A stretch of 64,000 nucleotides of DNA from positions 55,616,001 to 55,680,000 of the forward strand of contig OZ076409.1 in NCBI GenBank assembly GCA_964187785.1. The letters run 5' to 3'. This DNA comes from Amphiscolops sp. MND2022 (taxonomy: Eukaryota). Every line of letters starts with the position of its first letter. Position 1 is the stretch's first letter. This document shows positions 11,733 to 42,546 of this stretch, one piece after another. The notes under the pieces are model-generated. The model saw only the letters and a program-made list of their open reading frames with translations, was not told where the DNA came from and ran no database searches. Position numbers and translations under genes: made by a program.

Positions 11733-14570
11733 AAAAAAAGCCACAACTGTGTTCAGCACTTTTCATGAAAGTGCCACTTAAGGTAAGACATTTAAATCTT
11801 GAGGAATCGAAGATAAACCTAGCAATCGTTTTGCTACAAAGGTCTACTGTGTTCACATAAAGTAAACCAATATGATTGTCGCGAGAAATGTGATTATCTG
11901 TGTCGTATGCTGCCTCCTGTAAATACTTATTTGTATAACTAGACCTTAAGTCAACCTAACTACGGCAAACTAATATTACATGTATTGCTCATGAAGTAGA
12001 CGCTTTACTATTTCTCGCCCACATGTAGTGGTAATTGGGGAATAAAATCATATTCTGTGTTGCGTTTTTTCCGTCATTCTGCCAAAACTCCACTTTATAT
12101 CCACTCCAATTATCTTAGTTACTTGACTATTTTATCAGCGGAAAAAATCCCAATGCTTAGCGGGCGTCTTGTTTTGTTTAAAAATTTGTTTTGAGACAAA
12201 GAATAAACATTAATGGACTTGAAGTCGCTTCGACCACATCAACTATTGTCCGATGCAAACAATAATACTCAACTTTATTGTTTTTATAAATCGTTTTGTA
12301 CATCGTTTTGTATAATTTAAAACTGTACTTTTAGTTGTGTAAACTACTTTTATTTTATTATGAACAAACTCATTGCGATTATATTAGCAAGAAAATTGCA
12401 GTTGCGGAAATGTGATCAATTTAACATTCACAAAAAACGCGTTCGAATAATGCGGCTCTTTAGCTAGCTCAACGCACGGTCTTTTGGAATTCTTAACCAA
12501 TCAGAAGCGCTCTTAGCTCCAGTCAAAGGGAACGCTAGTTCAATAACTTCATTAGAAACTGCTATCAATTATGTTATTATTTTCCGCCCATGTATATTGG
12601 CGGAAAACTCTGCCAAATCTCTATTACCTCCATCTTTACTTGACTATTTTTTTTACTTGTCTACTAGGAAAGAAAAGAAAGTTTATTAGGCTGCATACTC
12701 GAAAAGATACAATTTCATCTCATGGTATTGAAGAAATTCTAAATTTACACCCAGCCAGGAGAGAGGATGGCCTTAAGCAGCTCTTCTAGCCTCTCCCCTT
12801 AAAATGAATAACATAAAGAGGAAAGTTGCAAAACAATTATTGTGTCAAATTTCTGTTGTTCAAGGGTTTTTCTTTCGGATTGCAAAACCGACGGTTTTGG
12901 GATAATTAGAATAGTTTCATATAGGCGACTTCCCTTTACATACAAATGAGATGTGACTGTGTTCCAGCTGTGTTCATTTTCGGTAAGTCAACTGGTATTA
13001 ATTTATGGTCTTTCAACCAATTATCTGCCTTCCGCAATCTGTTGTCCACTGATTTGGCTCGGGTAACAGTTCGACGGGTGAAAGTCAATGGTGGAAATTT
13101 TTTTCTTTTAATCTGGTATTACATTGGCAAAGTCCGAGTCTATCTTGAAAAAAAAAGCCACAACTGTGTTCAGCACTTTTCATGAAAGTGCCACTTAAGG
13201 TAAGACATTTAAATCTTGAGGAATCGAAGATAAACCTAGCAATCGTTTTGCTACAAAGGTCTACTGTGTTCACATAAAGTAAACCAATATGATTGTCGCG
13301 AGAAATGTGATTATCTGTGTCGTATGCTGCCTCCTGTAAATACTTATTTGTATAACTAGACCTTAAGTCAACCTAACTACGGCAAACTAATATTACATGT
13401 ATTGCTCATGAAGTAGACGCTTTACTATTTCTCGCCCACATGTAGTGGTAATTGGGGAATAAAATCATATTCTGTGTTGCGTTTTTTCCGTCATTCTGCC
13501 AAAACTCCACTTTATATCCACTCCAATTATCTTAGTTACTTGACTATTTTATCAGCGGAAAAAATCCCAATGCTTAGCGGGCGTCTTGTTTTGTTTAAAA
13601 ATTTGTTTTGAGACAAAGAATAAACATTAATGGACTTGAAGTCGCTTCGACCACATCAACTATTGTCCGATGCAAACAATAATACTCAACTTTATCGTTT
13701 TTATAAATCGTTTTGTACATCGTTTTGTATAATTTAAAACTGTACTTTTAGTTGTGTAAACTACTTTTATTTTTTAATGAACAAACTCATTGCGATTATA
13801 TTAGCAAGAAAATTGCAGTTGCGGAAATGTGATCAATTTAACATTCACAAAAAACGCGTTCGAATAATGCGGCTCTTTAGCTAGCTCAACGCACGGTCTT
13901 TTGGAATTCTTAACCAATCAGAAGCGCTCTTAGCTCCAGTCAAAGGGAACGCTAGTTCAATAATTTCATTAGAAACTGCTATCAATTATGTTATTATTTT
14001 CCGCCCATGTATATTGGCGGAAAACTCTGCCAAATCTCTATTACCTCCATCTTTACTTGACTATTTTTTTTACTTGTCTACTAGGGAAGAAAAGAAAGTT
14101 TCTTTGGCTGCATACTCGAAAAGATACAATTTCATCTCATGGTATTGAAGAAATTCTAAATTTACACCCAGCCAGGAGAGAGGATGGCCTTAAGCAGCTC
14201 TTCTAGCCTCTCCCCTTAAAATGAATAACATAAAGAGGAAAGTTGCAAAACAATTATTGTGTCAAATTTCTGTTGTTCAAGGGTTTTTCTTTCGGATTGC
14301 AAAACCGACGGTTTTGGGATAATTAGAATAGTTTCATATAGGCGACTTCCCTTTACATACAAATGAGATGTGACTGTGTTCCAGCTGTGTTCATTTTCGG
14401 TAAGTCAACTGGTATTAATTTATGGTCTTTCAACCAATTATCTGCCTTCCGCAATCTGTTGTCCACTGATTTGGCTCGGGTAACAGTTCGACGGGTGAAA
14501 GTCAATGGTGGAAAACTTTTTTCTTTTAATCTGGTATTACATTGGCAAAGTCCGAGTCTATCTTGAAAAA
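11733..14570. repeat. Near-identical head-to-tail tandem duplication, unit 1417 bp (11733-13149, 13150-~14570)
   Basis: AAAAAAAGCCACAACTGTG at both unit starts; matching ORFs are offset by 1417 (12571/13988, 12946/14363); only a few substitutions/indels. Confidence 0.93.
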
Positions 14571-19085: not shown

Positions 19086-20807
19086 TGTGATAATCCTCTA
19101 GGGACTCTGCATCTGACTCTTCGTCTGAATGAATGGTTACATCTACGTCGGATTCACTTCGAAACAAAGGCTTTGCAGGTTGTTTTAATTCTGTCATTTT
19201 AGATGCCCTAACAGGATTACTCTCATCTTCAGATTCAGTACTTTCTATATTGGATGCATGAACTCCTATAGACTCTTTACTTTTAGATCCCGTGGGTTGT
19301 ATATCTTCAATTTCATTAGTTATAGACCTTGGGTTCGTTACTGTTGAGTGACTCCTGTTTGATTTTATCTCTTTCAGAATAGCATCTAGTTTATTCTCCA
19401 TCTCCTCTCTCATTTTTTCAATCCTATCATTGTTTCTCTGATCAATAATCTCGGTCCAAGCTTGCATCTCAGAACTAGCTTGACTGGGTTCGACAAGTTG
19501 ATTTCCTGGGTTCGGTTCTCCTAAATCTCCATCAACATTTAAGTTGGAATTAGTTAAAGTTATATTACCTGTCTCAGAAAAATCAGTTCTAGTTCTATCT
19601 TCCTCTCTTTCTGGGGACGGGGTTGCCAGTCTCCTTGATCTTCTACTTCTCTTATTCCCCATCTTGTTGAGTAAAAAACTAGTTATGGTTGTTGGGGAAG
19701 AATTTTAATTAGTTTCAGATTGGAAAATCCAAACTTCGGGAAAACAATGAAAATGAAAATGAAGACAAAATGAAGGCAAAAGCTTGTATGAATTGATTCA
19801 ACTGCACTTTATGAAGGTTATCTCAATTATATCTTTATCACAAATCACCCTTTTCTCCAAAATAAAAACAATGACAACCATTTTTACAGATATCATAGAA
19901 TCCTGGAAAAACCCAAATATAGTATGATATCATAGTTGCGTAATTCTATTTATAACATCATCACAATGATTCGAATGCACTCAAATGAACTTAAGACCCT
20001 AGAAAAATGCTTTAAAACCGTAGATATAACATCACGAACAGCATAAATTGTATAACGAATGAATACTGCATTATATCGCCGAAAACCGTATATCACCGCA
20101 TATGCAACATATCTCGCAACGTATGGTAACGTATAATGTATATGAACATCGTTGTCAATACGCAAGTTGATGTATATGCTACTTCATTCATTACGCACAA
20201 TCATTCATAATTCAATTATGTGAAACGTATGTTAATGCGTGGTGACTGTCCACAAAACCGCATAGTGACGCATAATGGTAGTGAAAAAAGGTATATCACC
20301 GCATGCTTTTAATACTTAAACGTGCATAATGATGTATGTTCAAAAGCGTATATTGACGTATACTCGTTAAGCTGAAATGCGTATGTTGGTGTATACTTGC
20401 CAAGCCAAAACGTGTATGATGACGTATATACAATAAACCTAATTATGCGTGATACCGCTCTTTGGTATTTACAAAATGTTCAATGACACATGTTAACCAT
20501 CTTGATAACAGTATGATCGCGCATAATGATAAATCAAAAACCACGAGTAAGTCATTCTTATGCAATCACAAAACATATGTTACGTCCATGAATGAAATTT
20601 AAACGGGTCAAGGAGCTTTGAAGGGTCTGCAAAAACAATTAAAAAGGAAACATCCTCAATAAGAACAAATGGATGATCATCAAGATACGGTAGAAAATGT
20701 TATTAGAATGAGTTTTGATGGGTTTAAAATGTTTGTTTCACCAAGTTTTGGGGTTGTTCCTTTTTAGTGCTGCTCTACGGAACCATCGCATCTTGGTGGA
20801 TGCGACA
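19086..20807 (-). repeat. 3' LTR (1722 bp)
   Basis: Matches 34230-35951 at a constant offset of 15144; I counted five substitutions by eye. Confidence 0.97.
20087..20524 (+). promoter_or_regulatory. Phased CGYAT-N5-CGYAT motif array in LTR U3 (copy at 35231-35668)
   Basis: Units, some degenerate, start at 20087, 20120, 20161, 20194, 20226, 20259, 20290, 20323, 20347, 20380, 20413, 20446, 20477 and 20510; spacing is mostly 31-33 bp. Confidence 0.8.
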
Positions 20808-21792
20808 GTCCCGCATTTTTAAAAAGGAACAATGCCGCCTCAAATCCATGGACGAATGCCCTTGATCTTATGGTTCTCTCTTTTACTGTCTCGCCCTCAT
20901 ATTCCGTTGCAGCTAGATACTCGCCCAGGGTCTCCAATGCTATCTGATCGTAGCATTTTCCACATAGTTGACAGTAACATGCGACGTTTGCCATCACTGT
21001 GGGTATCAGTCGAATGCTGTGTCTTTCCTGGGCTGGGATTAATAAAGAGTTAGCACTGTGAGTGGTATTGAAAGGGAACCCGAGTTGAACCATAGGTTGC
21101 ATCAACTGTGTCACTCTTCGAGTCTCATGACTAGTCTCACCGATGTTAAGGGGGAACAACATTGGAGATAAGTTGAATCCCACTACATTTCCCTGCACAG
21201 TACTTTGTGGAGGAACTATATTCCCTTGTGTTTCTTGTTCCATCGGCTCATTTAAAGGCTGTTGTTGGATGCTTGTTAACTCGGGCCTATAGTTTGGCGG
21301 GTACAGAGGTATTGGGCGTGCAAGAATTCCTGAGTCATCAGAACTTCTCCTCTGGTTCGGTGGGACAATAGCGGTGGGTCGGCCATAACTATTGGTGGGT
21401 TCTCTACATCTGTCTCTTTGAGTCCAAGGGGATAAATTCCCTTCTTCAAATTCGCTGTCCACAAACGAATTTGGAGAGGCCACCTGCTCGCTTTGGGGGT
21501 CCCCGATCAAATTCATAAGGTCCCTTTCCAGTTGGGTTCCTGACGCAATAGTGGTTACATCTTGAGTCAGTGATTCGCTTGTACTCGGGAACAAAGTAGC
21601 TGTTGTTGCGCCCACAAATGCCGACATTAGATTGCTCCCAGATGTATTTATTCGAAACTTGTCATCTAGGTGGGTAATGTCTCCGGGGGCGAGGGAAAAA
21701 GAGTCTTCTGATCCGCTTGAAATATCCACCACATCGGGCGATATGGGGGAATAAAGATAGGCATCATCAATGTTGAATTGAGATTTATTCAT
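20764..21792 (-). CDS. 342-aa accessory protein (sense to gag-pol): disordered N-terminus, C-terminal CxCxxCxxC cluster and helical domain
   Basis: Intact ATG-to-TAA ORF containing VACYCQLCGKCYDQ. It reads through the PPT and stops inside the 3' LTR. Confidence 0.8.
   Translation of the reverse strand: MNKSQFNIDDAYLYSPISPDVVDISSGSEDSFSLAPGDITHLDDKFRINTSGSNLMSAFVGATTATLFPSTSESLTQDVTTIASGTQLERDLMNLIGDPQSEQVASPNSFVDSEFEEGNLSPWTQRDRCREPTNSYGRPTAIVPPNQRRSSDDSGILARPIPLYPPNYRPELTSIQQQPLNEPMEQETQGNIVPPQSTVQGNVVGFNLSPMLFPLNIGETSHETRRVTQLMQPMVQLGFPFNTTHSANSLLIPAQERHSIRLIPTVMANVACYCQLCGKCYDQIALETLGEYLAATEYEGETVKERTIRSRAFVHGFEAALFLFKNAGLSHPPRCDGSVEQH
20808..20823 (-). other. Polypurine-tract position (atypical TTTAAAAATGCGGGAC)
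   Basis: Immediately precedes the 3' LTR TGT on the minus strand; similar to TTAAAAACCGGGATGGA before the LTR of element 1. Confidence 0.6.
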
Positions 21793-23310
21793 TTTTTCAA
21801 AGTTACAGAAATGTTACTTGAAGTTTGAAATTTTGAAGGTTTTACAAGCGACTGATTTTCAGTTTAGCAAAGACCATATGGTGAAAATTCTACTTAAAAT
21901 TTCCTGACTTCACTGAAACCCCGCAAAAAACTTGAGTGTCATTGTAGCGTGGGGTCGACAAAGCCTTATATGGAAGTAAGGTTGATAAAACCTTATAAAC
22001 AAAGGTGTTTAGTCTGAGTTCTCTCCTTTAAGGTAAATAAACGAAGTAGGTGTAAGTTTTCCACACCTTCACCAATCGGAACTTTCTTTTGATCATCATT
22101 CAACTTTGTTCCAACTATAACTTGATTAGATGTAAACAAAAAATATCATGAGTTGAGATTTTACCGGGAGGGCAATTCAAAGATTTCATGGAGTTCCGTA
22201 TAAAAATGATCATGAACTTGTATTGATAGAATTAGCTACATGACTATTTTAAAGTTTTACAAAGGGAATAGTAAAATATTGGGTGTCCCGCACTTGAAAA
22301 GTGCGCAATTTCTTACTTCAAATATGATCAAACAGACAGTTCGTTTGTGAGATATCAATAGATTATTTTTGGTCCAAAAGTTTATTTCTAGGTACATCTC
22401 CACAGATTTCTCTTGTAGGCTTATAGTCCATCAACTGGTGTCTGTTTTTTCGTATCGACACTGTATTGCGTATGTTTATCTAAAGTTCTGCGCAAATGCG
22501 CATAACCACCATCACTGAGTGTGTGTATTAGCGTTGCATAATCGTATCACAGCAGCAAGCCATCAAATGAATAATCTCGTTGATTACATAATGTTCGGCG
22601 TAGTCATTCCACTGCAATAGTAGATATTAGCACGTGTTTATACTAGTCATATTTCAGCATAATGTCGTACAATCTGTATCCTTCTTTCCGCGGGTTGCCG
22701 CATACTCGTAGACTATTATTACGTATGCTGTCGTATATTATATATCTGTGAATCCGCATATTGACGTATATGCGCTGGCTGTAAATACGCATGTCACCGC
22801 ATATCAGTACTTTATCTCCGTGTATACACGTGTGCCTTCTGTGACAACTCCGCAGGTTACCGCATATGCCCTCAACACAAGTCCGCACGTTTGTGCTGTG
22901 GCAATTATGTTTGTTTTTATATTGCTTAAATGTCAATTACGTAATCAGACACTCTGGCAGGAAATGACTGACTTTTGAATCGACCAATCAGATTTAAGTA
23001 TATTGTATCTTTTGGTACAACCGCCATATTTATTTGCTTTTTGCCTTTCGTTTGAAACGCCACACCTTTACATTGCATCTTGATCATCACGATTTTACAT
23101 TGTATCTCTCAACGATTATCAACACTTTTTGAATCTTTAATTTTCCCAACTATCCTTTCTTCTCTTTTACTCCAGTTAGAGTTACAGTTCGAGTCCTTAA
23201 AGTCACAAATTTTACTCTTTTCCAATTATTAATTTGATATTGTTGATAAAGTTCTTCAATTTTGTACCCGATTTCTTTTTGGATAAACGTCAGTTGCTTC
23301 CAAATTCGTC
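21793..23310. promoter_or_regulatory. Divergent promoter region between the 342-aa ORF (-) and the six-exon gene (+)
   Basis: Head-to-head ATGs 1.5 kb apart; TATAAG on the minus strand (~21965-21970); CCAAT at ~22072 and ~22984; YY1-like CCGCCATATT at 23021-23030; central motif array. Confidence 0.55.
22656..22865 (+). promoter_or_regulatory. Phased CGYAT-N5-CGYAT array in the divergent promoter
   Basis: Units at 22656, 22689, 22722, 22755, 22788 (exact 33-bp period), then 22819 and 22851. Examples: CGTATGCTGTCGTAT, CGCATATTGACGTAT, CGCATGTCACCGCAT. Confidence 0.82.
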
Positions 23311-26300
23311 ATGGATCCAGGACACCACAGAAAGTCAAGGAAGGACCAAATTTCGCGACGGCAAGGAACTTCTTGGGGATACAAATCCCCGACTTCTACT
23401 ACACCCCGTAAGTACAACTTTGATTCTGTTCAAAATTTTCGAGTTCATTTCAATTTTCCGATCGGACTAATTTGAGCAATTAGCTGGCCAGGCTAATTAT
23501 TTTGAGAAAGTCGACTCTAATTTAGAATCTTGGTTTTGAATTTGTCGGAAGTTAACAACTTCCGGTTTGTTTCATCGGTAACTTCCGCTCATTTTTGAAA
23601 TAATCTGAAACCGCGTCCGGTAGTAGACTATCTTTTGAGTGAAGCTTTTACCTGTTGTGAATAAGCTCCTTATTTATTGTTAGCAGCAAATTCAAATGTT
23701 TTAGTTGAACTCGGAGCTACAGAGAAGTCACCTGCTCGTTCACCGACCAGAACTTACACGCCGCTGGAAGTTGCCTCCCCCAGTAAAACTGCAAATCTTA
23801 TTCAGACGACTGTCCACGACGAGAACGTCGCTACTATTCAGACAGCCGATCCACTTCTTGCTTCAAACATTGCCCCAGCTACTGGCAATGAGCAGGTTGA
23901 AGTGATCACCATTGAGAGTTCAACTGTTGCCTCAACTATAGAAGAAGTTGAGCCGGAGTCTCCTATTATCGACATTCTTAACGAGTCTCCTCCAACGCCC
24001 GAAAATCCCGTAAGTCCAATTCTCACTGGAATCACCATGATGAACATGGACCCATCTGATAATTCAACCGCTAATACAACTAATGTGGATCCAATTCTTC
24101 CTTCCGATCTGCAAATTTCATCACCAAAGTTGACGCAATTCCTCCTTTTATCACAACAAGGGACCTCCACTCGCCAAGGGGCGAAGAAACCTGAATTTCC
24201 TACTGATTTGGAAGAGGGAGATTTTGACATCACCATGGATACCACCCCCACTGAAAATCAAGGAGACGATCAACCTGGGTCAAGTGTCCCAAATATCAGT
24301 TTGACACGGAACGAACTTCTGGTAATCTCCAACGTTTTAGGGAGAGTCCCTACTTCTTTTTTGGGAGAAGAGATTACCCTAACTGGACCGGAAATTTCAG
24401 TGTCGGTGGTGGACAACCCACCAAATCCTCCTCAACGGGTTAATCCTTCGATGGAGAATAACTTGCCGGGAGATAGCTACGTTTACCAAGAGCAAACTGA
24501 GACTGATTTAAACGATGAGCCTGTAGTTCGCAACAAGAGGCAAAGGCCAAGATATTCCCTCAAAGGGAGTATGTTACGTAAACATCCTGTCTTGAAATTT
24601 TCGGCAACAGGACCTATCGATCGCGAAAAAACTCCACATAAATGGTGGTGCCGAGTGTGCAGATTAGAGCTTTCTTTAATGAGCAGAGGCGTCCTTGAAG
24701 TATTAGCACACTATAAAACTGATTCTCACCTAGTTCGAGAACACCGTATAAGGATGGACACACCAGGAATGCCTTTATACGACAAAAATGGACACGAATT
24801 ACAGGGTATTGCCCTTTCAGAAGCCAAAAAGATCGCAAAGGAAACATATCCGATTGTCCCTCAACTGGATCCTTATCGCCTCTTGGTAGGCCAGGACTCA
24901 TTACCCAAATTTGGTGCTGAAAAGAGTCCTATGGAAACCGTCATCTCTCAAATTTGCCTTCTTGAAATTGGACTCAGACGCGGCGGGGATCTTTCTTGTC
25001 TCTCCGATATCTTCGAGGAAGTCAATCGTTTTTCCAGCGAAGGGGGTCCTACTGTTGCTTTTGATTGGAGTCCCCACCGACTTTTCGTAAGTATCTTTCG
25101 CATTTGACAATTTCACATATACATTTATACCTAGTACGATCTTGTAACCATAATTATATTTTAAATAATGTCAGGCTACGTTTAATATATCATCTCTGAA
25201 AATGTTTATTGAATACCGACTTTGCTTTCCAGGGAATGATCACTCATATGTTCCGAGAGCTACTTAACTACTGTGTAACCAACATCACATCTAACGGGAC
25301 ATATTCTCTATCCCTAACACATCTTACAACTGAATCCAACCTCTACTTGGGATTCTGGTCAGGAAATGTGTTTCACCAAGTATGTGTTGGAACTGGACCG
25401 CGAGGATTTTTGATTCCCCGGAGGATTTTGACTTTGGTCTCATCTCTTATTAGCTTGTTCGAGACCCCACCTCCATGTGCCTGTCTAGTTGGGATGGGAG
25501 AAAGGTTGAATTCCTGCCTTGTATCTGCGCTTCCTGGTCAACAGCGTCCCAACTTGCTCAACAATTTCGGTGTGGAAGAGTTTGAAAGATGCCTTGCTTT
25601 GCCCACCGCAAAGATTATTGAAAGACATGATTACAAAACGATTATTGACTTTCTCTTACTTAAGCTGCGCACTGCCCTTGACAGGGATTGGCTGCAAAGT
25701 CTCCCTCTTCTACACAAAGTACGTGGTAGCATGTCAGTTTTGAAAATTCTATTGTTTTTTCCTTTTCATAATCTTATTATTTTATCTCTGTTCTGTTTCC
25801 AGTGCGTGGTGTCTCTACAGTACACCCTGAGTGAAGCTTCTTCTCTCATTGATTGTTTCTCCCGTAATTGGAATCGAATTCAGGACCATCTCACTCAAGT
25901 TTCTCGATTGCCGGCCTACCGATTTCATATGAGAGAAGTGAGTATATTTGATATAAATCTTTCGTAGGGTGATCTTATCCTCTTCAATTTTGGTATATCA
26001 TTTGGTTTCAGCCCAACACACTAGACGAATGTTTTCGTTTGGACACAGCGTACCTTGCGCGCCTATTCATCATTCGCTGTGTCATTGATCATTGTTAGTT
26101 CCCAATTTTCAACTATCTTGTTGTGTGGTTAAGTCTCTTTTTTACCATGCGATATCACATCCACACTGATGTACATTAGCAATTACTATTTAAATTTATC
26201 GTAATACCTCCTTCTTCATCATATTTGACGAACTTAGATGTTTGCTTCGTTTTTGTAACTCTTTCCCATATTTTGTATTCCAGTACTATCCGTAGGGAAA

Positions 26301-27984
26301 ATGAGTATACGGTATATCATTCACCGCATTATGACGTATAAGCGGCTCAACTCTTTCTGTATGGTGACTCATTATCAAGATTAGCATTGATAATTTGGTG
26401 TATTTCTAAAATTTGTCATCCTCGTATGTACGCATATGCGTCATACTAAAATCAGCATTGTTACGTATAGCACATACTGTTTGTCTGTAGAGATATAGGG
26501 CGAAGCTCGATTTCCGTTGGATAACGCATGATTACTGGCTGCAGATATGTATCATGACGCAGATTCAAACTACAAATTCCGCATGATACCGCATAGCTGC
26601 TGTTGATGAAAATGAGGAGTGACGTGTAATGAAATTCAGAATGCGTATGATGCCGTATAGTCGCCGTTGATAAAAGCGAGTAGTGACGTACCATGAAATT
26701 CAGAATGCGTATTATGCCGTATATCTACTGTCTGGAAAGATGCATTATCGCGGGTACTAGAATTATATTTCCGCGTAATAACGTATAATCGCTATCCAAT
26801 AATGCGTACAGTGATGTACATTGATCATTAATGGAGCTGTATATAGATGTTTATTCTCATGTATCTTCTGTTTAGACAATTCCGCTTTCTCCGAGGTGAA
26901 TCGTCGAGTCGATAACGGGTTCAGACTGTACAATCAATTTGCAGTTTTTACGTACAGTCAACTCCAGAATCTGTTTCATGACAGCTTCCTTGGAGATATA
27001 TCCGACTGGGATGGATATTTGGAAATTGACTTGACTAAACCTGATCTGCCGTTTAAAAGCCCGGCTGAGTTCGTCTTACAGCCTGATTATCATGCCTTGG
27101 TTGTTTCCAGTCATCTTCCGAGACCCAGTGTGTTTGTAGTACAATCTCTTGCGTTCTGCAAATCGTTTTGTGCTGCTTTGCTTAATCACGAGATTGTCAA
27201 GTCTAAACTTATCCGAGGTCTTTCATCTTTCGACTATGCTGTCATGTTAGATGGGCCTGAGAAGAATTACTTGTCTGCGATTGAAGATCTCACTAGTCAT
27301 TTCTTTTCCAGTGGATGGTTGTCTTCCAGTGATAAGGTTACAGCTGTAAGTCAGTACCGATCATTTGCCACCAAATTGCGATCTGAGGATGAGGTCAATA
27401 GAGATGATTGGATCAGATTTCTCATCAGCCACCATGAGATGCAGAGTCGTCCTGAGCTTTTGGATGTTTTCAAATTCGCTTGTCTTTGTTTGCCCCCCGT
27501 GGTTGCTGAGCCTGCCAAATTTTGTGTTTCTGTACCTGGACTGTTGTCTGATGTCAATACCTTTAACTCCGTAGTCCGTAGTCTACAGTTATCGTACGTT
27601 ACTGTCCCCAATGTCTCCAGTCTTTATAAAGATCCTAAGACTATCTGCCGAATCTTTCGACTGTTGGGAAGAGGTCCCGGGCTAATACGGGATAGAAAAT
27701 TCTCGATCTGGAGTTTTCTGAAGGGAAACGAGGCACGACGGGCAGCACTATACGAGAAAATGGAGCTTGCTTATAAAAAATCTGTTTTACAAGGGGAAGG
27801 ATTGCCTTTATTCTTGGATGTGCCGACCCCTAGCGCAAGCCGATCGCCAAGTACTAGCAGTTCTTCCAATTCCGGACCCAGGCTCGGACGTGTTTCTTTG
27901 GCTGTCTCACGTTGTGGGGGTGAAGAAGCTGCCTGTAGTTCTAAGAAGGTTGCTAAAAAGGCTGCTAAATCCAAGAAGAATTGA
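23311..27984 (+). CDS. Six-exon antisense gene, 1103 aa: BED/TTF-like zinc finger plus probable inactive hAT-transposase-derived fold. Exons 23311-23407, 23684-25086, 25233-25718, 25803-25937, 26012-26093, 26876-27984
   Basis: Five GT-AG introns (donors GTAAGT, GTAAGT, GTACGT, GTGAGT, GTTAGT; pyrimidine-rich acceptors) with phases 1,0,0,0,1. They join into one 3312-nt frame from ATG to TGA. Zinc-finger motif WWCRVC-x16-H-x5-H at 24643-24729. The hAT assignment is by motif resemblance only. Confidence 0.85.
26325..26819 (+). promoter_or_regulatory. Phased CGYAT-N5-CGYAT array in intron 5 of the antisense gene
   Basis: Units at 26325, 26358, 26454, then 26515, 26548, 26580, 26613, 26644, 26677, 26708, 26741, 26772, 26805 (31-33 bp period). 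A 64-bp higher-order repeat ATGAAATTCAGAATGCGTAT is present. Confidence 0.82.
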
Positions 27985-28178
27985 TCTTCAAAATTCAAAT
28001 CGTTGCAAACTACTCTTTTGTTTATTACACTTATATTTATTGTGTTTTGTGTTTGTCATATTCTAGCGTAAAATGCAGGAAGTTATACTTCAAGGAACTA
28101 GTATTAAAGTAAAGTGCAAAGTCACTGGAGTTCCGAAGAAGAAAGTTAAGAGAAAGAGAAACTTTGTCATCAGTCTTT

Positions 28179-31100
28179 TTAATATCTGAAAGAGTCTGAG
28201 TAATTTGGGTTAGGGTTAGGTCGTAGATTGTATCTTTCACCACGGGTATTTATAGGTTCTTCTTGCAATGGGGTATTTTGTGAATTCTCTGGGGAATTTT
28301 GTGTGTTTTTTGAAACATTTTGAGTATTTTCTGGGGTTTTTTGTATTTCATTGCTCGATGTATTATTTTGTTCTTTTTGGGTTATTTGGGTATTTTGATC
28401 ATCTTCACTGGTGTGTTGTGGAATTTCATCAGCTTGATTCTCATGATTTTGATCTGGTTCAGTGGTCTGATCCACTGGGCTCCCCCCACTATTTTTTGAA
28501 GATACTGGGGAGGGTGGGCGGCTATTGTCAGGTATTTGAATTGGGACATATTCGGTATCCTCAGTATTGTGTATTGCATCTGAGGGAATGTCATCAAATG
28601 GATTTGCTCCAAAATTCGTGTTCCATGATTGGGCATATAGATCATCATTTGCTATAGTCATTTGATCATCTTTTTGCCAGTCGGTTTCGCGAACAAAAAT
28701 GTCTGCTAAAGGGGCCTGCGGTGTGAATTTCCGCAAACGAATCCGATGTAGTAGTTGGGTTTTATTTGTGCCGAGTCTCCTCACAATGTAGTTATTGTTA
28801 GGGAGCACTTTTTCAACTTTATAAGGTCCACACCATCTGAATTCTCGGAATGGTATTTTCGTTGCTTGTGTATCAGCTTTTGGATTAAGAATATAGCAGT
28901 AATCTGTTGTTTCTAACGGGGCTGCTTTTGCTTTTCTATCGTAGTATGCCTTGTATTTAAGGTAAGATTGCATGATATTCTTTTTAGTTTGGTCTGAAAG
29001 TGTTCTCATGCGCTTTTGAATTTCTTCTGCAATATCAGTATGTGGTTGATACCTCGGATTTGGATTGTATCCAAGTTTGTAGTCAAGGATATTGTGTGGT
29101 ATGCGGCCATGGAAAACTCGTGAGGGTTCACAACCGAGTGATGCATGGTATGTTGTGTTATGATTAAGGACTGCTAGAGGAAGATATTTGTGCCAGTTGT
29201 TCCTGAATTCACCTGTGGCGGCTTTTAGGTGTGTTTTAACTGAGGCATGGGTTCTTTCTAAGAGTCCTATGGTTTGTGCATGTTTCATTGTGGCATGTTT
29301 CATTTCGATTCCAAGCACTGCCGCAATTTCATGAGTGACTTGTGCGTTGAATTGAGTGCCTAGATCCGTGATTATAGTTGTTGGAAGGTAGGTGTGTTTG
29401 CATAAGATATCCATTATGACTTTTGAAACTGCTGTTGCGGTAATTCGAGTCACAGGATAGGCAAACAAATACCTTGAGAAGACATCTATTGCTGTGATGA
29501 TGTGATCGTAGCCTCCGCTTGGGGGGAGGTTTGGCAAAATATCCATCTGTAAGATGTCTTCCGGTCCAAGGTCCCATTCGGGACAATTAAGGAGTTCGGT
29601 CCTGAGGAGATCATTGTTGATACGTTTTGTTTGTATACAAATCTGACAATTACTGACCCCTTTCTTTATGTATTTGGCCATACATGGGTAGTAATATTTT
29701 TGACGTGTTTCTTGAATCATCTTGGTAATTCCTGGATGGTTTGAGTTATGTCCATGGAGGGCTTGAAGTAGTTCTTCAAGAAGTTGGATTGGTAAGAGGA
29801 TTTGATAATGCGAGATCATTCCTGTGTCTGTATAGTATTTGCGTGTGAGAACTTCGTGTTTAATCTCGATTCGTGTTATGTTTTGTAAGTAGTGTTGATA
29901 TCTGAAATCGGAAGCTAATTCATTTTCATCAAACGGTTCGCCTTCTATTTTGGCTCTCAGGTTTCGAAGGACTATGTCATTGTTCTGTTCAAGGCGTATC
30001 CTCGCATTGTCCTTGAAGTGTCCAGAGGAGCAGGAGATCAATCCGGATGTAGGTTTGTGAAATTGTTGTAATTCAGAGACGTCGTTCTCTGGGTCATTGT
30101 GAGTTTCGTTTTGTGCTTGATTGCGAGTGTTTTGTTTTTCTTCCCAAAGTTGATTTTCATCGATTTCTTCATCAGGAAGGATGTAAATTTGTTCTTCTTC
30201 TACAATTCCAGTTGATTGTATATTCACTTCAATTGCTTTTGTATGAATATCGTTGCGAATTGTCATTTCGAGCTTCTCGGTTGGGTTACTTTCGGTTCTA
30301 GATAAGAAATCGGCGGCTGTGTTCATCGATCCAGCTACATGGGCGATTACAAAATTGTATTGTAATACATAATCGCATGCATTCCAAAGCGCTGGAGGAA
30401 TCATTTTCGTTTGAAAAAACCGGGTTACAGACCGATTATCCGTGAACACGATGACAGGGAAGGTACTCCCCCACATGAGGTGTCCGAACTCTACGAATGC
30501 AAAATATATTGAGAGGAATTCTTTTGCATAGATTGACATTTTCGTTTGTGTTGGATTGAACGTTTTTGATCCAAACGCAATGGGTGCGTAGGTTTTTCGT
30601 TTGGATTGGAGCTTCTGATTGGGATCGTCTTCAATCATGATGGCATATCCTGCAGCTGTGAAGCTTGCATCGGACATGACTATGAGTTGTTTGTCTTTCA
30701 AGGGTTGTTTCAACGCGAGTTGGCAAGAATTTCCCAAAAGTTGATTGAGGTTTGTAAAGTCTTCAACCAAGTTTGTAGGAACATAAATTTTGGAGGTTTC
30801 TTTGAGGAGTTTGAAAAACGGGGTGAGTCGTTCTGAAAGGTGAGGTATATAGTTTCGGTAATAATTCAAGAATCCGATATACCTTTGTAGTGCCTTTTTC
30901 GATTTTGGGAATTTGAGTTTTGCCAAAAAATCTTTCACTTTGTCGGCTTGAGGGGCAACTCCATCTGGTCTGATTGTGCGTCCTAAAAAGTCGACTTGTT
31001 TAACTCCGAAATGACATTTCGACATGGAGAGTTTCAGTCCGGCATTCCGGATGCATTCAAAAACGGTTTTTATGTTGATACACAATTGGTTTGAGTCGTT

Positions 31101-33119
31101 TGCTGCAATGCCTATATCATCGACATATTGTGCACATTGGTCCGCTTTTATTGCTCTGTCCAGATATTCTCTCATAAAGCTGGAAAAAGCTGAGAGGGAT
31201 CTGCTGAGGCCTTGGGCAAGGCGACGATAAGCAAATGTTCTGCTTGCAAAATTGAAAGCGAGCATTTGTATGGATTGATAATCTGCCATCTGTAGGCAAT
31301 GGTAAGCTTGGGAGCAGTCCAATTTGCAGAAAAGTTTTTTCCCTGCCATGTGTTGAGCTGCATCAGATAAAGTGCTTACCGGATGGTTGTTGTTTGCGTA
31401 ATCTTCAGTTATAAGATTATTGATTTTCCTGAGATCTACAAGGAGTCTGAGGCGCCCGTTCGGTTTGCGTTGCGCGAAGATCGGGCTAGCGTATTTGGAG
31501 AATGGTAAGGTTGTAATGATGCCATATTTATGGAGAAGTGCAAGTTCTACTGTGATGTCATCTTTCAAGTTTATTGGGGTTGGCAGACTTTGGCTGTAAG
31601 CTGGTCTGTCATCGTTTGGTGTTAGCTTTACTTTGAACTCACGATTTATGCCTATGTCAAAGCGATGTCGGGCAAAAACGTCGTGGAATTCGACGAGAAT
31701 TTCTTCAATTTCAGCTTGTTCAGTTTGACTGAGTGTTGTGTCGGACCAATCAAAGTTTGAGAGGAATGCTTTCCTGGATGATTCATTGTCATGTGGGTTA
31801 AGTTTTTCGAGTTCTTTTAGCTCTAGGAGTTCGTTGTATATCCGTTGTTGGATTGGAGTATATGTAGTTGGGTCGCCTGGGTCTTCTGGTGTAGGGAACC
31901 AGTACGACTCTTGTTCTGAGTTTTGTTGAGGTACTTTTAGTAGTTCGTTGATGTATACTTCTGTGGTTTCCTCATGTTGTATCATAAACGATAGTACCGA
32001 TGGGTCTATTGGTTGAATGTGTTTGATTTGTTCTGGAGTAAGAATTTTGAAATCTGCTAAATGGGTATCAAGGGTTATTGTATAGGGCAATTCCGAAAAA
32101 TTTATGATTTGATATCCAATAGCATTGTTATTAACTGTGCTAAGGGATGCAGTTATAAAAATACTATCATGGTTTTCGAATTGGTGTGAAGGGGTGACTA
32201 TTCCGGTTACATTATGGTCCATTAGATGAGGCATTTTGCTTGCTATGGCGAGTGTTTCGCCTGGTCGGAGGGTGTATGTATTTTCTGCAAACAATGGTGT
32301 TGCCTGCCTTATTGCTGTTTGGGTATCGGGTTTAAGTTGCATTGAAAGATAAGGAAAGGTTAGAATGCCTTGGGTGACATCGAAAATTGCATTGTTCCTT
32401 CGAAGGAAACACAGTCCGATTAGCGGATTTGGTAGGTTCTTCATAATGATAAAATTTTCCTTGAGCATGAAATCAGCTACTTCAAATTCTAGTAAGACTG
32501 TACCAGTGGGAACTTCTAATTGACCGTTTGCCACCATGATCTGGAAGTTAGGTGGGGGACCGGTTTCTTTGATAGCTTCATTTGCTAACAGCTTGATTTT
32601 ATTGAGGTCTTGTTCAGAAATGGCGCTTGTTAGGGCTCCTGTATCAATAAGACCGTCAAGAGTGAGTTTTTCAAAATCCATCGGTAAGTAGTACATGTGG
32701 CGTTTTCGTTTCAACGTTAAAGAGGTGGAGATTGGGAGATATTGCAAATTCCGTTCTTTGTCAAATTGTATGTGTTCTGTAAGATCTTCATTTAATAGAG
32801 GTTGTTTTTGATCATCACAAGAAGTTTTTATGGTGACGAGGTTTTTAATGGGTGAGTCTTGTGGGTGAATTTCGGGGTTTGAGTCAATGTCGGAGTGGGT
32901 TGGTTGCTCTATAAAGTAGTTGTCTGGTGCATCACGGAGGAGTTCGTATATGTCTTCAGATTGAGTTTTTTGTGTTGATTGTTGAGAGTTTTGTGTTGTT
33001 AAATCTGTTTGTGCAATGATTGTTTTTGTGATTTTAGGGCTCAGTTGATGCTGCCAGTCATCAGCTGAGTTTGGTTTATGTTGAGATTTGGTGTAAAGGC
33101 GTGGCGTTTCTAGTTTAAA
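28179..33119 (-). CDS. pol: Pol polyprotein (aspartic protease, dUTPase-like remnant, RT, RNase H, integrase), expressed by -1 frameshift
   Basis: Uninterrupted ORF with LIDTGA; YTLRPGETL..GIV..IINFS..TIT (dUTPase-like); YVDD; SDAS..FTDN (RNase H); HGHNSNHPG..CQIC zinc finger; D..D..E core; GPY. Confidence 0.96.
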   Translation of the reverse strand, partial: FKLETPRLYTKSQHKPNSADDWQHQLSPKITKTIIAQTDLTTQNSQQSTQKTQSEDIYELLRDAPDNYFIEQPTHSDIDSNPEIHPQDSPIKNLVTIKTSCDDQKQPLLNEDLTEHIQFDKERNLQYLPISTSLTLKRKRHMYYLPMDFEKLTLDGLIDTGALTSAISEQDLNKIKLLANEAIKETGPPPNFQIMVANGQLEVPTGTVLLEFEVADFMLKENFIIMKNLPNPLIGLCFLRRNNAIFDVTQGILTFPYLSMQLKPDTQTAIRQATPLFAENTYTLRPGETLAIASKMPHLMDHNVTGIVTPSHQFENHDSIFITASLSTVNNNAIGYQIINFSELPYTITLDTHLADFKILTPEQIKHIQPIDPSVLSFMIQHEETTEVYINELLKVPQQNSEQESYWFPTPEDPGDPTTYTPIQQRIYNELLELKELEKLNPHDNESSRKAFLSNFDWSDTTLSQTEQAEIEEILVEFHDVFARHRFDIGINREFKVKLTPNDDRPAYSQSLPTPINLKDDITVELALLHKYGIITTLPFSKYASPIFAQRKPNGRLRLLVDLRKINNLITEDYANNNHPVSTLSDAAQHMAGKKLFCKLDCSQAYHCLQMADYQSIQMLAFNFASRTFAYRRLAQGLSRSLSAFSSFMREYLDRAIKADQCAQYVDDIGIAANDSNQLCINIKTVFECIRNAGLKLSMSKCHFGVKQVDFLGRTIRPDGVAPQADKVKDFLAKLKFPKSKKALQRYIGFLNYYRNYIPHLSERLTPFFKLLKETSKIYVPTNLVEDFTNLNQLLGNSCQLALKQPLKDKQLIVMSDASFTAAGYAIMIEDDPNQKLQSKRKTYAPIAFGSKTFNPTQTKMSIYAKEFLSIYFAFVEFGHLMWGSTFPVIVFTDNRSVTRFFQTKMIPPALWNACDYVLQYNFVIAHVAGSMNTAADFLSRTESNPTEKLEMTIRNDIHTKAIEVNIQSTGIVEEEQIYILPDEEIDENQLWEEKQNTRNQAQNETHNDPENDVSELQQFHKPTSGLISCSSGHFKDNARIRLEQNNDIVLRNLRAKIEGEPFDENELASDFRYQHYLQNITRIEIKHEVLTRKYYTDTGMISHYQILLPIQLLEELLQALHGHNSNHPGITKMIQETRQKYYYPCMAKYIKKGVSNCQICIQTKRINNDLLRTELLNCPEWDLGPEDILQMDILPNLPPSGGYDHIITAIDVFSRYLFAYPVTRITATAVSKVIMDILCKHTYLPTTIITDLGTQFNAQVTHEIAAVLGIEMKHATMKHAQTIGLLERTHASVKTHLKAATGEFRNNWHKYLPLAVLNHNTTYHASLGCEPSRVFHGRIPHNILDYKLGYNPNPRYQPHTDIAEEIQKRMRTLSDQTKKNIMQSYLKYKAYYDRKAKAAPLETTDYCYILNPKADTQATKIPFREFRWCGPYKVEKVLPNNNYIVRRLGTNKTQLLHRIRLRKFTPQAPLADIFVRETDWQKDDQMTIANDDLYAQSWNTNFGANPFDDIPSDAIHNTEDTEYVPIQIPDNSRPPSPVSSKNSGGSPVDQTTEPDQNHENQADEIPQHTSEDDQNTQITQKEQNNTSSNEIQKTPENTQNVSKNTQNSPENSQNTPLQEEPINTRGERYNLRPNPNPNYSDSFRY

Positions 33120-34806
33120 TCCTTCGATGAGGATTGTTGGGGTCTTTCCATTTTTGGCTTGATTGGTTTTTTGGCTTGTTTGTATGCTTCTATGACTTTC
33201 TTTTGTGCCTCGGTGAGTGGCCATTTAGGTGGGCGGTTTTCCATATTGGCACCAAAATAACAATTTTCCTCTTCATGCCCTGGGGTGTTGCAGTTCTGGC
33301 ATTTTTCAGCCTCAGGGTCTTCCTCAAGTTTTCAAGTTTTCGCCGTTTAGCTAACTTGGGGCAGTCAGTCATCATATGGCCCGTTTCCTTGCAGTAACGG
33401 CACTGGTCATTTTTAAGAGTTTTGTCTGGTACTGTTTTGGGAGTTTGTTTCTTGCCTTTATCCGTTTGTTTTTTGTCAGTTTTTTCAGTGTTTTGGTCTT
33501 TTTTAGTTACGGTCATTTGAGTTTTGACAAGGGGTTCGTCTGCCTCTAGACCGTTAAGTTCCATTTCGCGTTCTAGGTGTTTAACGATTTGGTCATAGGT
33601 GCCATTTTCAAGGTATGCTTGATTAATGGACTTCTTTAAATGGGGAGGCATTTTAGCATAGAGTAGATTCTCTATCATTTGATGTGCATTTTCCCCAAAT
33701 GCCTTTTCTGCGCTTTCTTGAAGTTCTTCAAGGAAGTCAGGGAGTTTTTGATTTTCGGGTTGGAACGAAAGTCTGTGAAATCTGTGTTTTGCTGATGCAC
33801 TAGACTCCGGTTTTACATATTTCCTGCGAAACACCTTCAAGATGTCTTCCAGTGTGGTATTGGGGGTTCTTTGTATGTTTTTGAATGTTTTGAGTGCCAA
33901 GCCTCTGAGGTGTGCATGAAAATGATTGATTTTCATCTCCTCTGTGAGGTTGGGTTGCATGCGAAGAGTTGTATGAAATAGGTCTTCAAAGTATTCAAAT
34001 TGTTCATTTTTCTCATTTTTGCCATTAAATGTAAGTGTATTTTTGGGATGAAAGAGTGATTGTGGAGTATTTTTGTTGGCTAATTTCTCTATTGCGAGTG
34101 CAATTTGATTAACTGGGTCGAGTGGTTTGGTTGTTGATGTTGATGTGTTTTGGTCTGCGCGGGATCCTAAGGTATCATTAAGTTTTTGAGAACTTTGTCT
34201 ATGGAGTTGTCGGTTGGCTCCTGTCACCATGTGATAATCCTCTAGGGACTCTGCATCTGACTCTTCGTCTGAATGAATGGTTACATCTACGTCGGATTCA
34301 CTTCGAAACAAAGGCTTTGCAGGTTGTTTTAATTCTGTCATTTTAGATGCCCTAACAGGATTACTCTCATCTTCAGATTCAGTACTTTCTATATTGGATG
34401 CATGAACTCCTATAGACTCTTTACTTTTAGATCCCGTGGGTTGTATATCTTCAATTTCATTAGTTATAGACCTTGGGTTCGTTACTGTTGAGTGACTCCT
34501 GTTTGATTTTATCTCTTTCAGAATAGCATCTAGTTTATTCTCCATCTCCTCTCTCATTTTTTCAATCCTATCATTGTTTCTCTGATCAATAATCTCGGTC
34601 CAAGCTTGCATCTCAGAACTAGCTTGACTGGGTTCGACAAGTTGATTTCCTGGGTTCGGTTCTCCTAAATCTCCATCAACATTTAAGTTGGAATTAGTTA
34701 AAGTTATATTACCTGTCTCAGAAAAATCAGTTCTAGTTCTATCTTCCTCTCTTTCTGGGGACGGGGTTGCCAGTCTCCTTGATCTTCTACTTCTCTTATT
34801 CCCCAT
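33110..34806 (-). CDS. gag: Gag; 562 aa once an 8-bp duplication at 33324-33339 is removed, frameshifted as assembled
   Basis: Capsid-like TFNGKNEK..FEYFEDLF..HLRGLALKTF; knuckle CRYCKETGHMMTDC; a second knuckle CQNCNTPGHEEENC in the shifted frame; ends GAT TTA AAC TAG. Confidence 0.9.
33113..33119 (-). other. -1 ribosomal frameshift slippery heptamer T TTA AAC
   Basis: X XXY YYZ in the restored gag frame directly before the gag TAG; a -1 shift enters the pol frame (TTT AAA CTA GAA). Confidence 0.85.
34212..34229 (-). other. Primer-binding site TGGTGACAGGAGCCAACC (tRNA-Leu-like, tentative)
   Basis: Begins TGG directly after the LTR terminal CA. The first 12 nt resemble the complement of eukaryotic tRNA-Leu 3' ends (TGGTGTCAGGAG) with one mismatch. 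Confidence 0.75.
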
Positions 34807-35951
34807 CTTGTTGAGTGAAAAACTAGTTATGGTTGTTGGGGAAGAATTTTAATTAGTTTCAGATTGGAAAATCCAAACTTCGGGAAAACAATGAAAATGA
34901 AAATGAAGACAAAATGAAGGCAAAAGCTTGTATGAATTGATTCAACTGCACTTTATTAAGGTTATCTCAATTATATCTTTATCACAAATCACCCTTTTCT
35001 CCAAAATAAAAACAATGACAACCATTTTTACAGATATCATAGAATCCTGGAAAAACCCAAATATAGTATGATATCATAGTTGCGTAATTCTATTTATAAC
35101 ATCATCACAATGATTCGAATGCACTCAAATGAACTTAAGACCCTAGAAAAATGCTTTAAAACCGTAGATATAACATCACGAACAGCATAAATTGTATAAC
35201 GAATGAATACTGCATTATATCGCCGAAAACCGTATATCACCGCATATGCAACATATCTCGCAACGTATGGTAACGTATAATGTATATGAACATCGTTGTC
35301 AATACGCAAGTTGATGTATATGATACTTCATTCATTACGCACAATCATTCATAATTCAATTATGTGAAACGTATGTTAATGCGTGGTGACTGTCCACAAA
35401 ACCGCATAGTGACGCATAATGGTAGTGAAAAAAGGTATATCACCGCATGCTTTTAATACTTAAACGTGCATAATGATGTATGTTCAAAAGCGTATATTGA
35501 CGTATACTCGTTAAGCTGAAATGCGTATGTTGGTGTATACTTGCCAAGCCAAAACGTGTATGATGACGTATATACAATAAACCTAATTATGCGTGATACC
35601 GCTCTTTGGTATTTACAAAATGTTCAATGACGCATGTTAACCATCTTGATAACAGTATGATCGCGCATAATGATAAATCAAAAACCACGAGTAAGTCATT
35701 CTTATGCAATCACAAAACATATGTTACGTCCATGAATGAAATTTAAACGGGTCAAGGAGCTTTGAAGGGTCTACAAAAACAATTAAAAAGGAAACATCCT
35801 CAATAAGAACAAATGGATGATCATCAAGATACGGTAGAAAATGTTATTAGAATGAGTTTTGATGGGTTTAAAATGTTTGTTTCACCAAGTTTTGGGGTTG
35901 TTCCTTTTTAGTGCTGCTCTACGGAACCATCGCATCTTGGTGGATGCGACA
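34230..35951 (-). repeat. 5' LTR (1722 bp): U3 motif array, TATAAATA at 35091-35098, AATAAA at 34952-34957, Gag ATG at 34806
   Basis: Matches 19086-20807, has TG...CA ends and is followed by the PBS. Confidence 0.97.
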
Positions 35952-35980
35952 ACAAGTAAACAGACAGTTGCGCGTATTAG

Positions 35981-36265
35981 ATTACGATGAATGCCAAGAC
36001 GATCATAACACGGTGTGCGATGACATTTATGCTATCTGTGTCAACAGTGAAGGAAGTTTCCACTGTGAGTGCAATCAGGGATACTGGAGAGCTGATGACT
36101 CACAATCATGTGAAGATTGGGATGAATGTAAATGCGGCCTGAACAAAACTGAATGCGACACGTTTATTTGTGGACAGTTTCGTGTGTGTACAAACACTCC
36201 CGGCTCATTCACGTGTGATTGTCAAGAAGGATATGCAAACGTTGTCGCTAGTCTCATTTGCGTAG
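35981..36265 (+). CDS. Host gene exon with two cbEGF domains
   Basis: Acceptor attag at 35980 and donor GTGAGT at 36266, phase 1-1. Reads DYDECQ..CVNSEGSFHCEC..DWDECK..CTNTPGSFTCDC. Confidence 0.9.
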
Positions 36266-36668
36266 GTGAGTTCAGCCAAGCTGAAGACAGAACACTGAGA
36301 GGGTTTGATTTTGGGCCGGACGCTTTCGCTTAATAAATGATGCTCGCCAAAATCAACCTGTGTTCAAAATGAGCTCAATGGCTGCTCTGGAAATTTTAAA
36401 TTATTTCGAATCACAGAAAATACAGCTCTTTTGCGTAGAATCTCTTTCATAATACAGCGTTATTTGATCCCTTTTGTCTCAAAAAAAAAGTTTTTTGGAC
36501 TCGATTATGTAACAGATAGTTTTACACCTTTCGACCATAAACTCAATCCGGAACTAAGTAAGAGAGCATCAATCATCTGACTCTTGCAGCAACCGGGTAA
36601 AACACCTGATTCGAACCAAGATTCAAAACTACTGATCACTAATAATATTTTAAACGCGTTTCATTCAG

Positions 36669-42329: not shown

Positions 42330-42350
42330 GTGAAGGAGAAACCAACACAT

Positions 42351-42546
42351 CAGGGGCGGTTTTAGGGGGCATGCGGGGGTGCGGTAGCATCACCCTTTTT
42401 TGAAAAAATATAGTGCCATTGCTCAAAGATTGAACTCTTCTAGGTTTAACTTTAATTTTTATATGTATGAAATAGGCGCTTTTCTAAGCAAAAAGCGTTT
42501 TCACACAATCAGCATCCCCCTTAAAAATATTTTGAAACCGCCGCTG
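42351..42546. mobile_element. hAT-type MITE (196 bp); duplicate at 44148-44343
   Basis: TIRs CAGGGGCGGTTT / AAACCGCCGCTG with a perfect 8-bp TSD CAACACAT (42343-42350, 42547-42554). Confidence 0.9.

Follow-up and report, generated by a model that had tools for sequence, protein, structure and literature searches.

An antisense, intron-containing gene of Ty3/Gypsy retrotransposons in Amphiscolops encodes a protein that probably descends from a hAT transposase and may read the motif arrays of its carrier

Several of the systems that come closest to the locus described here are known from plants. In the interval from pol to the 3' long terminal repeat (LTR), the Gypsy elements Retand, Grande and RIRE2 have antisense open reading frames (ORFs; TRP28, PF04195) together with tandem arrays, and the origin and function of antisense accessory genes of LTR elements are regarded as an open question (PMC11963269). 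In DNA transposons, VANC21 binds dense same-orientation motifs within introns, between genes and in non-coding DNA at the termini (PMC5735166), and the TnpA protein of Spm arose from a transposase, catalytic loss yielding regulators (bioRxiv 10.64898/2026.08.24.746577). We analyzed a stretch of 64,000 nucleotides from Amphiscolops sp. MND2022 (contig OZ076409.1, positions 55,616,001 to 55,680,000, forward strand), referred to as the window, with coordinates counted from its first letter. It contains a Ty3/Gypsy retrotransposon that carries a gene antisense to its own gag-pol. The encoded protein probably descends from a hAT transposase and has very probably lost catalysis, judging by its residues.

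The retrotransposon (minus strand) is complete, young and 16,866 bp long. It has the hallmarks of Ty3/Gypsy elements, namely LTRs of 1722 bp each with TG..CA ends (99.7% identical to each other), a flanking target-site duplication of 5 bp, gag, and the order protease, reverse transcriptase (RT), RNase H, integrase; Pfam matches were found for RT, RNaseH, integrase, protease and gag. The additional gene lies between pol and the 3' LTR on the plus strand. An earlier note on this DNA, made from the letters alone, had rightly called it antisense, as gag-pol occupies the minus strand of the element. Six GT-AG exons join into an intact frame of 1096 amino acids (aa), from the ATG at 23311 to the stop at 27984; the note had missed the 5' exon and the motif arrays.

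19086-35951, minus strand: Ty3/Gypsy LTR retrotransposon, recognized by its LTR pair, 5-bp duplication and Pfam domains
19086-20807, minus strand: 3' LTR of 1722 bp, TG..CA, with a motif array at about 20086-20427
34230-35951, minus strand: 5' LTR, 99.7% identical; its motif array (about 35230-35635) lies upstream of the ATG of gag at 34806
22698-22865, plus strand: spacer array of MCGYAT half-sites, paired at 22754 and 22787, just upstream of the antisense promoter region
22930-23075, plus strand: promoter-like conserved blocks of the antisense gene, from an alignment of nine subfamilies
23311-23407, plus strand: exon 1 (ATG, basic patch)
23705-25086, plus strand: exon 2, with a variable, acidic and Ser-Pro-rich N-terminus, a basic patch resembling a nuclear localization signal (aa 308-316), a C2H2 finger and a helical region
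25233-25718, plus strand: exon 3 (aa 494-655), RNase H-like core mapping to Hermes 153-327, in which the first two catalytic acids (D1/D2) and CxxH are not kept
25803-25937, plus strand: exon 4 (aa 656-700)
26012-26093, plus strand: exon 5 (aa 701-727)
26324-26786, plus strand: intron-5 array of MCGYAT half-sites, paired at 26324 and 26579
26876-27984, plus strand: exon 6 (aa 728-1096), which maps to Hermes 368-609 with a helical part resembling an insertion domain and a C-terminal region; the ERxFS glutamate is lacking and the C-terminal tail is basic

A search of the same genome for the gene returned 6991 first-look candidates, of which 150 were scored, and 89 loci were sampled from the best-hit lists, not randomly. 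In 87 of the 89 loci, RT or integrase lay next to the gene on the other strand; the remaining two (L048 and L126) had neither in the stretch examined. All 49 elements examined at length (31/31 and 18/18) had LTR pairs, 95-100% identical, and TG..CA ends with a 5-bp duplication were seen in 25 of 31 when shifts of up to 6 nt were allowed. Relative to the window protein, the copies fall into three clades: clade 1 (53-100% identical per exon), clade 2 (33-48%) and clade 3 (20-28%, tblastn matches). RT identity to the window tracks these clades (about 91-98%, 90-92% and 72-83%, respectively), which fits one old capture. Within clade 1, where pol is 1-10% diverged, distances of the antisense gene do not track those of pol (rho 0.00), suggesting that the cassette has been exchanged between families. 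A profile of exon 6 matched 350 representative clusters. The best matches of two of these, P0140 and P0293, in this genome were 47% and 30%, pointing to relatives in other genomes; a metagenome scan with P0140 found no relative. One locus (L138) was excluded from the clade-2 motif and tree counts, an insertion having disturbed its compartments, and two more (L128 and L130) were not used, being near-duplicates or lacking flanks.

The splice structure was inferred from the comparison of copies. Of 40 other copies, 31 allowed all exons to be mapped, and in these introns 2-5 agree in position and phase; the other nine, with an exon split or missing, were skipped. Across the 31 copies GT donors and AG acceptors were each found at 122 of 124 sites, with intron lengths varying over 68-148, 65-85, 67-100 and 371-1045 nt for introns 2 to 5. 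Exon 1, its donor, the exon-2 acceptor and the promoter-like blocks, with a CCAAT at 22984-22988 and a pyrimidine-rich block near 23030-23070, are conserved in nine subfamilies. A retroelement can retain introns only in a gene that runs antisense to its packaged RNA, as this one does. The protein is under purifying selection, with synonymous differences (mean pS 0.86) far exceeding nonsynonymous ones (pN 0.26) over 153 pairs; dN/dS was 0.034 for the window against L034, the one divergent pair with finite dS, and 0.105 for a close pair. A large Gypsy lineage carries this gene in antisense orientation, as an accessory gene with introns.

At the protein level exon 5 is the most conserved exon in clade 1 (mean pN 0.088, pS 0.91); an RNA element as the cause was rejected, synonymous sites being saturated. 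In clade 2 (L129/L133) intron 3 is long and intron 5 short, and in the three stretches displayed from clade 3 (loci L201-L219) exon 3 continues into exon 4 without an intron. Intron 1 (23480-23495, 23545-23625) contains several CTTCCG words, which are ETS-like, and a short block in which a CTGGCCAG palindrome shows no variation across 9/9 subfamilies. A hidden coding exon in intron 1 was considered for the window's clade and rejected, conservation there being limited to short non-coding blocks.

The motifs from which the earlier note had read a catalytically dead hAT transposase all lie on the plus strand in the single spliced ORF of six exons and 1096 aa: RNKRQRPRY at aa 308, WWCRVC at aa 346 (24643), LIRGLSS at aa 839, RPELLDV at aa 919 and, one base off the position given, NGTYSLSLTHLTT at aa 514 (25293-25331). 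The finger has the pattern C348-x2-C351-x16-H368-x5-H374, with the spacing kept in the displayed rows of all three clades. Pfam zf-BED matched none of 15 exon-2 proteins. The assignment to the BED/TTF type, which is that of the N-terminal finger of hAT transposases, is putative and comes from the residue pattern.

The search with exon 6 found no longer homolog, and exons 3 and 6 were therefore folded singly and not as part of a full-length protein. The model of exon 3 (52-row alignment, predicted local distance difference test score, pLDDT, 78.7) has the topology helix-β1-β2-β3-helix-β4-helix, which is the RNase H order. Its first-ranked Foldseek match was Hermes (4d1q, E 0.016, probability 0.98). 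VIA aligned 148 of its 162 residues with Hermes 153-327 (Z 6.3, root mean square deviation, rmsd, 7.0), and residues 1-112 of the model with Hermes 153-268 over 105-107 residues (rmsd 3.4, Z 6.0-6.1). For exon 6 (84 rows, pLDDT 76.9), Hermes ranked first among 48,161 chains in VIA (Z 4.9, rmsd 8.1), with 172 aligned residues against at most 102 in the other rows, and with model residues 1-270 mapping to Hermes 368-609. The two Hermes ranges are colinear; between them lie 40 Hermes residues, against 72 residues encoded by exons 4-5. Together the matches give an RNase H-like core with a helical insertion, at weak scores. In the ESM Atlas the neighbours of the finger-plus-core part were DUF4371, FAM200/ZBED5, DUF659 and ZBED1 clusters (0.85-0.92), with 136-165 shared features, under the 170 typical of same-family matches; for exon 6 by itself the neighbours were clusters without a name or of DUF3684/DUF8348, with low recognition. 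Each line is weak, and it is their agreement on Hermes, a target named beforehand, that we count as the evidence. We consider it very likely that the protein derives from a DDE transposase with an insertion domain, and, on the strength of these models, probable that the donor was specifically a hAT element. The hAT resemblance proposed earlier thus extends, in structure, beyond the finger.

Hermes requires D180, D248, R318, W319 and E572 (PMC6027215). We placed the triad register in the cargo protein by strand position, without residue-level superposition. The window protein has no acid at 517-526 (β1 and the next three residues) or at 575-582 (the end of β4). In clades 1 and 2, columns 517-523 and 579 are acidic in 0/52 rows, and 580 is D in 10 of 52. 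The region after CLCLP has no conserved Glu column, and D953, present in 68 of 83 close rows, is lost in a 46-row wide set. A CxxH after the core is a hAT motif. Hermes has C265 and H268, and the latter aligns at model residue 112, the end of the range, which is F605; this position is F or Y in 67/67 rows, so CxxH is not kept. W646 is invariant (34/34 rows) and lies near the expected place (model 162 = Hermes 327), but is preceded by Asp; it may be the equivalent of W319. An alternative register in exon 4 offers neither R nor W of R318-W319. With the triad broken in this way, the earlier claim of catalytic loss is borne out, and the protein of the window's clade is very probably catalytically dead.

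Clade 3 weighs somewhat against this. Ten of its 15 rows have D or E at 523 and five an acid at 522, and E-G-A-S at 579, the end of β4, in 6/15 rows resembles D-G-A-S of a host hAT. These acids are a remnant supporting homology and make the loss less certain for clade 3. The third acid is missing in this clade too, and hence in all clades.

The word MCGYAT clusters in three non-coding compartments: the LTR beyond its gag-coding part, the spacer between ORF3 (a further sense ORF, see below) and the antisense gene, and intron 5. In clade 1 (15 elements, 43.6 kb), 469 half-sites lie on the plus strand versus 56 on the minus strand, with spacings that peak at 10, 22-23, 32-33 and 42-43 bp. The 133 pairs at 10 bp compare with a null mean of 13.9 (maximum 25 in 1000) and with 0.1 in dinucleotide shuffles. 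The motif had been chosen from the window and was then tested on the other elements, where pairs held in 14/14 (15/15 including the window). The compartments themselves are largely unalignable in this clade, BLAST matching 32 of 105 LTR pairs and 27 of 105 intron-5 pairs. Outside the compartments, paired MCGYAT occurred twice in 234 kb of flanks and not at all in the remaining 47 kb of the window or in 187 kb of host hAT loci. The paired words differ between clades 1, 2 and 3: the clade-1 word forms 133, 0 and 0 pairs, the clade-2 word 2, 19 and 0 (the 19 in 8/8 elements), and the clade-3 word 0, 0 and 27 (in 13/18). The words for clades 2 and 3 were selected after inspection of the clades that bear them. 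Dense same-orientation motifs in non-coding regions, differing by lineage, are the pattern described for VANC and TnpA. We lean slightly towards the view that the antisense protein binds these arrays; that the effect would be activating or anti-silencing rather than repressing falls just short of being probable.

The mechanism we favour would run as follows. A hAT gene, introns included, would have inserted antisense into an ancestral Gypsy element once, before the three clades split. Its introns, being antisense, would go unspliced from the genomic RNA and so survive reverse transcription. Terminal inverted repeats (TIRs) and catalysis would then have been lost, since an active transposase would cut its own carrier to pieces, with the finger and the oligomer scaffold retained. 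In the LTR, the spacer and intron 5, half-sites spaced by one helical turn (10 bp) and by three (32-33 bp) would be read by several fingers of one oligomer, by analogy with Hermes, whose BED fingers bind short subterminal repeats (PMC10368747) and do so cooperatively. Once bound, the protein would activate the element in trans or lift its silencing, in the manner of VANC and TnpA in plant DNA transposons. On this analogy, the captured dead transposase would be a self-targeting regulator that keeps the promoters of the element active, a proposition we regard as evenly balanced. More tentatively, and with some doubt, we suggest that a retroelement has rebuilt the 'subterminal repeat' logic of hAT elements: a dead transposase would read paired arrays and switch on or de-silence its carrier, protein and motif would co-evolve by clade, and the cassette would be swapped between families, giving a cross-class animal counterpart of plant VANC/TnpA, possibly with ORF3 as an effector.

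The descent from hAT has to be weighed against other donors. The donor could have belonged to another DDE family with an insertion domain (Mutator/IS256, P element, Kolobok), or exon 3 could show a common RNase H-like fold next to an unrelated helical bundle in exon 6. For exon 3, ISCth4 of the Mutator/IS256 type reaches Z 7.0 over 99 residues at rmsd 3.0, P-element transposase aligns over 148 residues (Z 4.6), and integrases and kinases tie with Hermes; the Z of exon 6 is tied with small bundles. The structural scores count against the hAT reading as well: Z values of 4.9 and 6.0-6.3 lie within the range that the tool calls common, the long Hermes alignments have rmsd values of 7-8 Å, all scores are below clear-match levels, Foldseek gave no match for exon 6, and the finger was never folded. 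A VIA re-check of the Foldseek candidates for exon 6, which did not include Hermes, found no transposase. The sequence searches point the same way. Pfam gave no hAT match for the window exons, the 52 exon-3 rows, or 23 and 27 further proteins; PDB profile searches gave no hAT link, and hidden Markov models and HHalign gave no match with hAT frames from 20 host loci. Dimer_Tnp_hAT (PF05699) had no Pfam match in exon 6 or 27 relatives, with the structural range reaching Hermes 609, and a lone PF05699 match in one exon-3 row (E 0.16) was judged to be chance, lying in the wrong region. A DUF4371-type host hAT query returned 8 matches, too few for a profile. The host hAT frames at five loci (L101-L105) encode 597-697 aa with recognisable catalytic motifs; none is detectably related to the cargo protein. 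Even so, we consider a different donor improbable, since only Hermes ranks first or close to first with both exons, and its alignments are the longest and are colinear (153-327 and 368-609), the ESM Atlas neighbours are hAT families, and the order of N-terminal C2H2 finger, helical domain and then core is that of hAT proteins (PMC6027215). If the retroelement harboured a DNA transposon that is active or became nested in it recently, this would explain the open conserved frame and the acids that clade 3 retains near D1 and D2. Such a reading is disfavoured and highly improbable, as the best inverted or direct repeat between the flanks of the gene has E 0.059, no free DNA transposon copy was found among the 89 best-hit loci, the third acid is absent in all clades, and the gene sits at the identical position in lineages whose RTs differ by about 20%. 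Around the gene there are no TIRs and no 8-bp target duplication; the limits seen belong to the LTR element, which is flanked by 5-bp duplications.

For the arrays, the main competitor keeps the hAT origin and the lost catalysis but assigns the motifs to host bZIP, CREB or AP-1 factors, with the protein doing another job at the level of DNA or particle, such as anchoring the integration complex at selected chromatin or protecting the ends of the cDNA. Clade 3 is dominated by words of the cAMP response element (CRE) type and clade 2 by those of the AP-1 type: a full CRE is part of the clade-3 motif (TGACGTCA in 18/18), AP-1 sites abound in clade 2, and TGACGT occurs in 34 of the 133 clade-1 pairs, so host bZIP factors could account for part of the arrays. 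Further points count against binding by the antisense protein. Each motif was chosen within the clade in which it occurs, and with three clades there are no more than three data points; the 32-33 bp period is absent in clade 2; 5 of 18 clade-3 elements lack the clade motif; and CpG is not depleted in the window (observed/expected 0.92), so that a VANC-like demethylation target is not evident. Selection on the entire scaffold, insertion domain included, goes beyond the needs of a simple activator, and the target duplications lack a hAT-like 8-bp pattern. We nevertheless consider this alternative unlikely, although it deserves serious attention: the clade-1 consensus CCGCAT with its strict same-strand geometry of 10 and 32-33 bp is no palindromic bZIP site, an intron of the gene itself holds arrays, a parallel to VANC (PMC5735166), and only 3 full CREs occur in 43.7 kb of clade-1 non-coding DNA. 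The same array evidence would serve equally for a protein that binds as a repressor or copy-number brake, or that acts as an overproduction-type inhibitor of host hAT transposases and so lowers the cost to the host. Domesticated hAT proteins do include repressors, such as ZBED6, and antisense transcription could itself dampen gag-pol RNA. The family, however, is young and abundant (LTR pairs 95-100% identical, 6991 first-look candidates), the 187 kb of host hAT loci have no array motif, and divergence from host hATs beyond profile detection makes hetero-oligomers unlikely, which leaves such a repressor rather improbable next to the self-targeting activator that we prefer.

The remaining features of the element are the following.

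20764-21792, minus strand: ORF3, an extra sense ORF of 342 aa from its ATG, between pol and the 3' LTR
28179-33224, minus strand: pol (protease, RT, RNase H, integrase), open frame of 1681 aa
33190-34806, minus strand: gag, with its ATG inside the 5' LTR

ORF3 is acidic, with a Q/P-rich middle and a conserved Cys-rich C-terminal block containing CxxCxxC, and has no Pfam match. It was found in all 31 clade-1/2 elements examined at length, is 31-99% identical across these two clades, and went undetected by tblastn in clade 3. Its acidic motifs resemble SUMO-interacting motifs. ORF3 could be a partner effector of the antisense protein. The gag gene (34806-34229, minus strand) begins within the 5' LTR and reads across the LTR end and a site at 34229 that resembles a primer-binding site. 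Because it starts inside the LTR and crosses its end, each LTR holds about 190 gag codons. Compared with four close copies, the window copy has a frame shift at the 3' end of gag, near 33330 (minus strand).

Exons of a host gene with EGF_CA domains lie on the plus strand at 9886-10476 (Pfam) and about 35980-36270 (by eye), and the retroelement appears to sit in an intron of this gene. At 2104-4336 (plus strand), two ORFs match a Monjiviricetes fusion glycoprotein (PF24664, E 2e-19 and 1e-05) and follow a 484-aa ORF without a Pfam match; they are probably an env-like gene of another element. The window also contains a 1.4-kb tandem duplication (11730-14570, 99.3% identity) and 29-bp and 174-177-bp tandem arrays and nested repeats (57286-57885, 55102-55776 and 40350-48900), some of which lie between short inverted repeats (56595/58125).

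Dead transposases are known as regulators in host genomes and within DNA transposons; in the present case a mobile element of a different class would be the domesticator, and the gene persists in Gypsy lineages between which its copies are only about 20-28% identical. The present case offers a traceable origin and a candidate target sequence for one antisense accessory gene. As the finger domain is short and the paired site is a defined one of 16 bp, the regulatory hypothesis lends itself to direct testing. If true, it would mean that animal retroelements can carry their own sequence-specific counter-silencing, and it would supply natural finger/motif pairs with different specificities. Among LTR elements, ATLANTYS carries a host-like domain (PMC13547354). 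In the literature covered, with subscription papers, Repbase reports and supplements outside its scope, we found no LTR element with a DDE transposase accessory gene, and the preprint bioRxiv 10.64898/2026.08.24.746577 contains neither 'retrotransposon' nor 'LTR' as a whole word.

Compared with hAT proteins (Hermes, PDB 4D1Q/8EDG, and the ZBED, FAM200 and DUF4371 families), the cargo protein is alike in the order of finger, helical domain, core, insertion and C-terminal region, in the structures of exons 3 and 6 and in its Atlas neighbours. It differs in lacking equivalents of D180, D248 and E572, CxxH, TIRs and 8-bp duplications, in lying beyond profile detection, and in that its gene is carried by a retrotransposon and not by a DNA transposon or a fixed host locus. 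With Retand it shares a family-wide antisense gene in the interval between pol and the 3' LTR, predicted DNA binding, family-specific arrays and a proposed role in regulation. PF04195 (TRP28) had no Pfam match in the cargo protein or in further relatives, and what the gene has in common with the TRP28 ORF is its position. Unlike Retand, the host is an animal, the gene has multiple introns, the word 'intron' being absent from PMC11963269, and the arrays also occupy the LTR and the gene's own intron; TRP28 is reported there to be without similarity to other known transposable elements, whereas the cargo protein maps onto a DDE transposase. VANC (VANDAL) and TnpA (Spm) resemble the present system in combining an element-encoded protein with same-orientation motifs, arranged as degenerate tandem repeats in introns, spacers and termini, in a motif that differs between protein clades and, for TnpA, in derivation from a transposase. 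Those proteins act in plant DNA transposons via DNA methylation, whereas the carrier in the present case belongs to class I, the protein would come from another element class, and its binding to the arrays and its activity are predictions.

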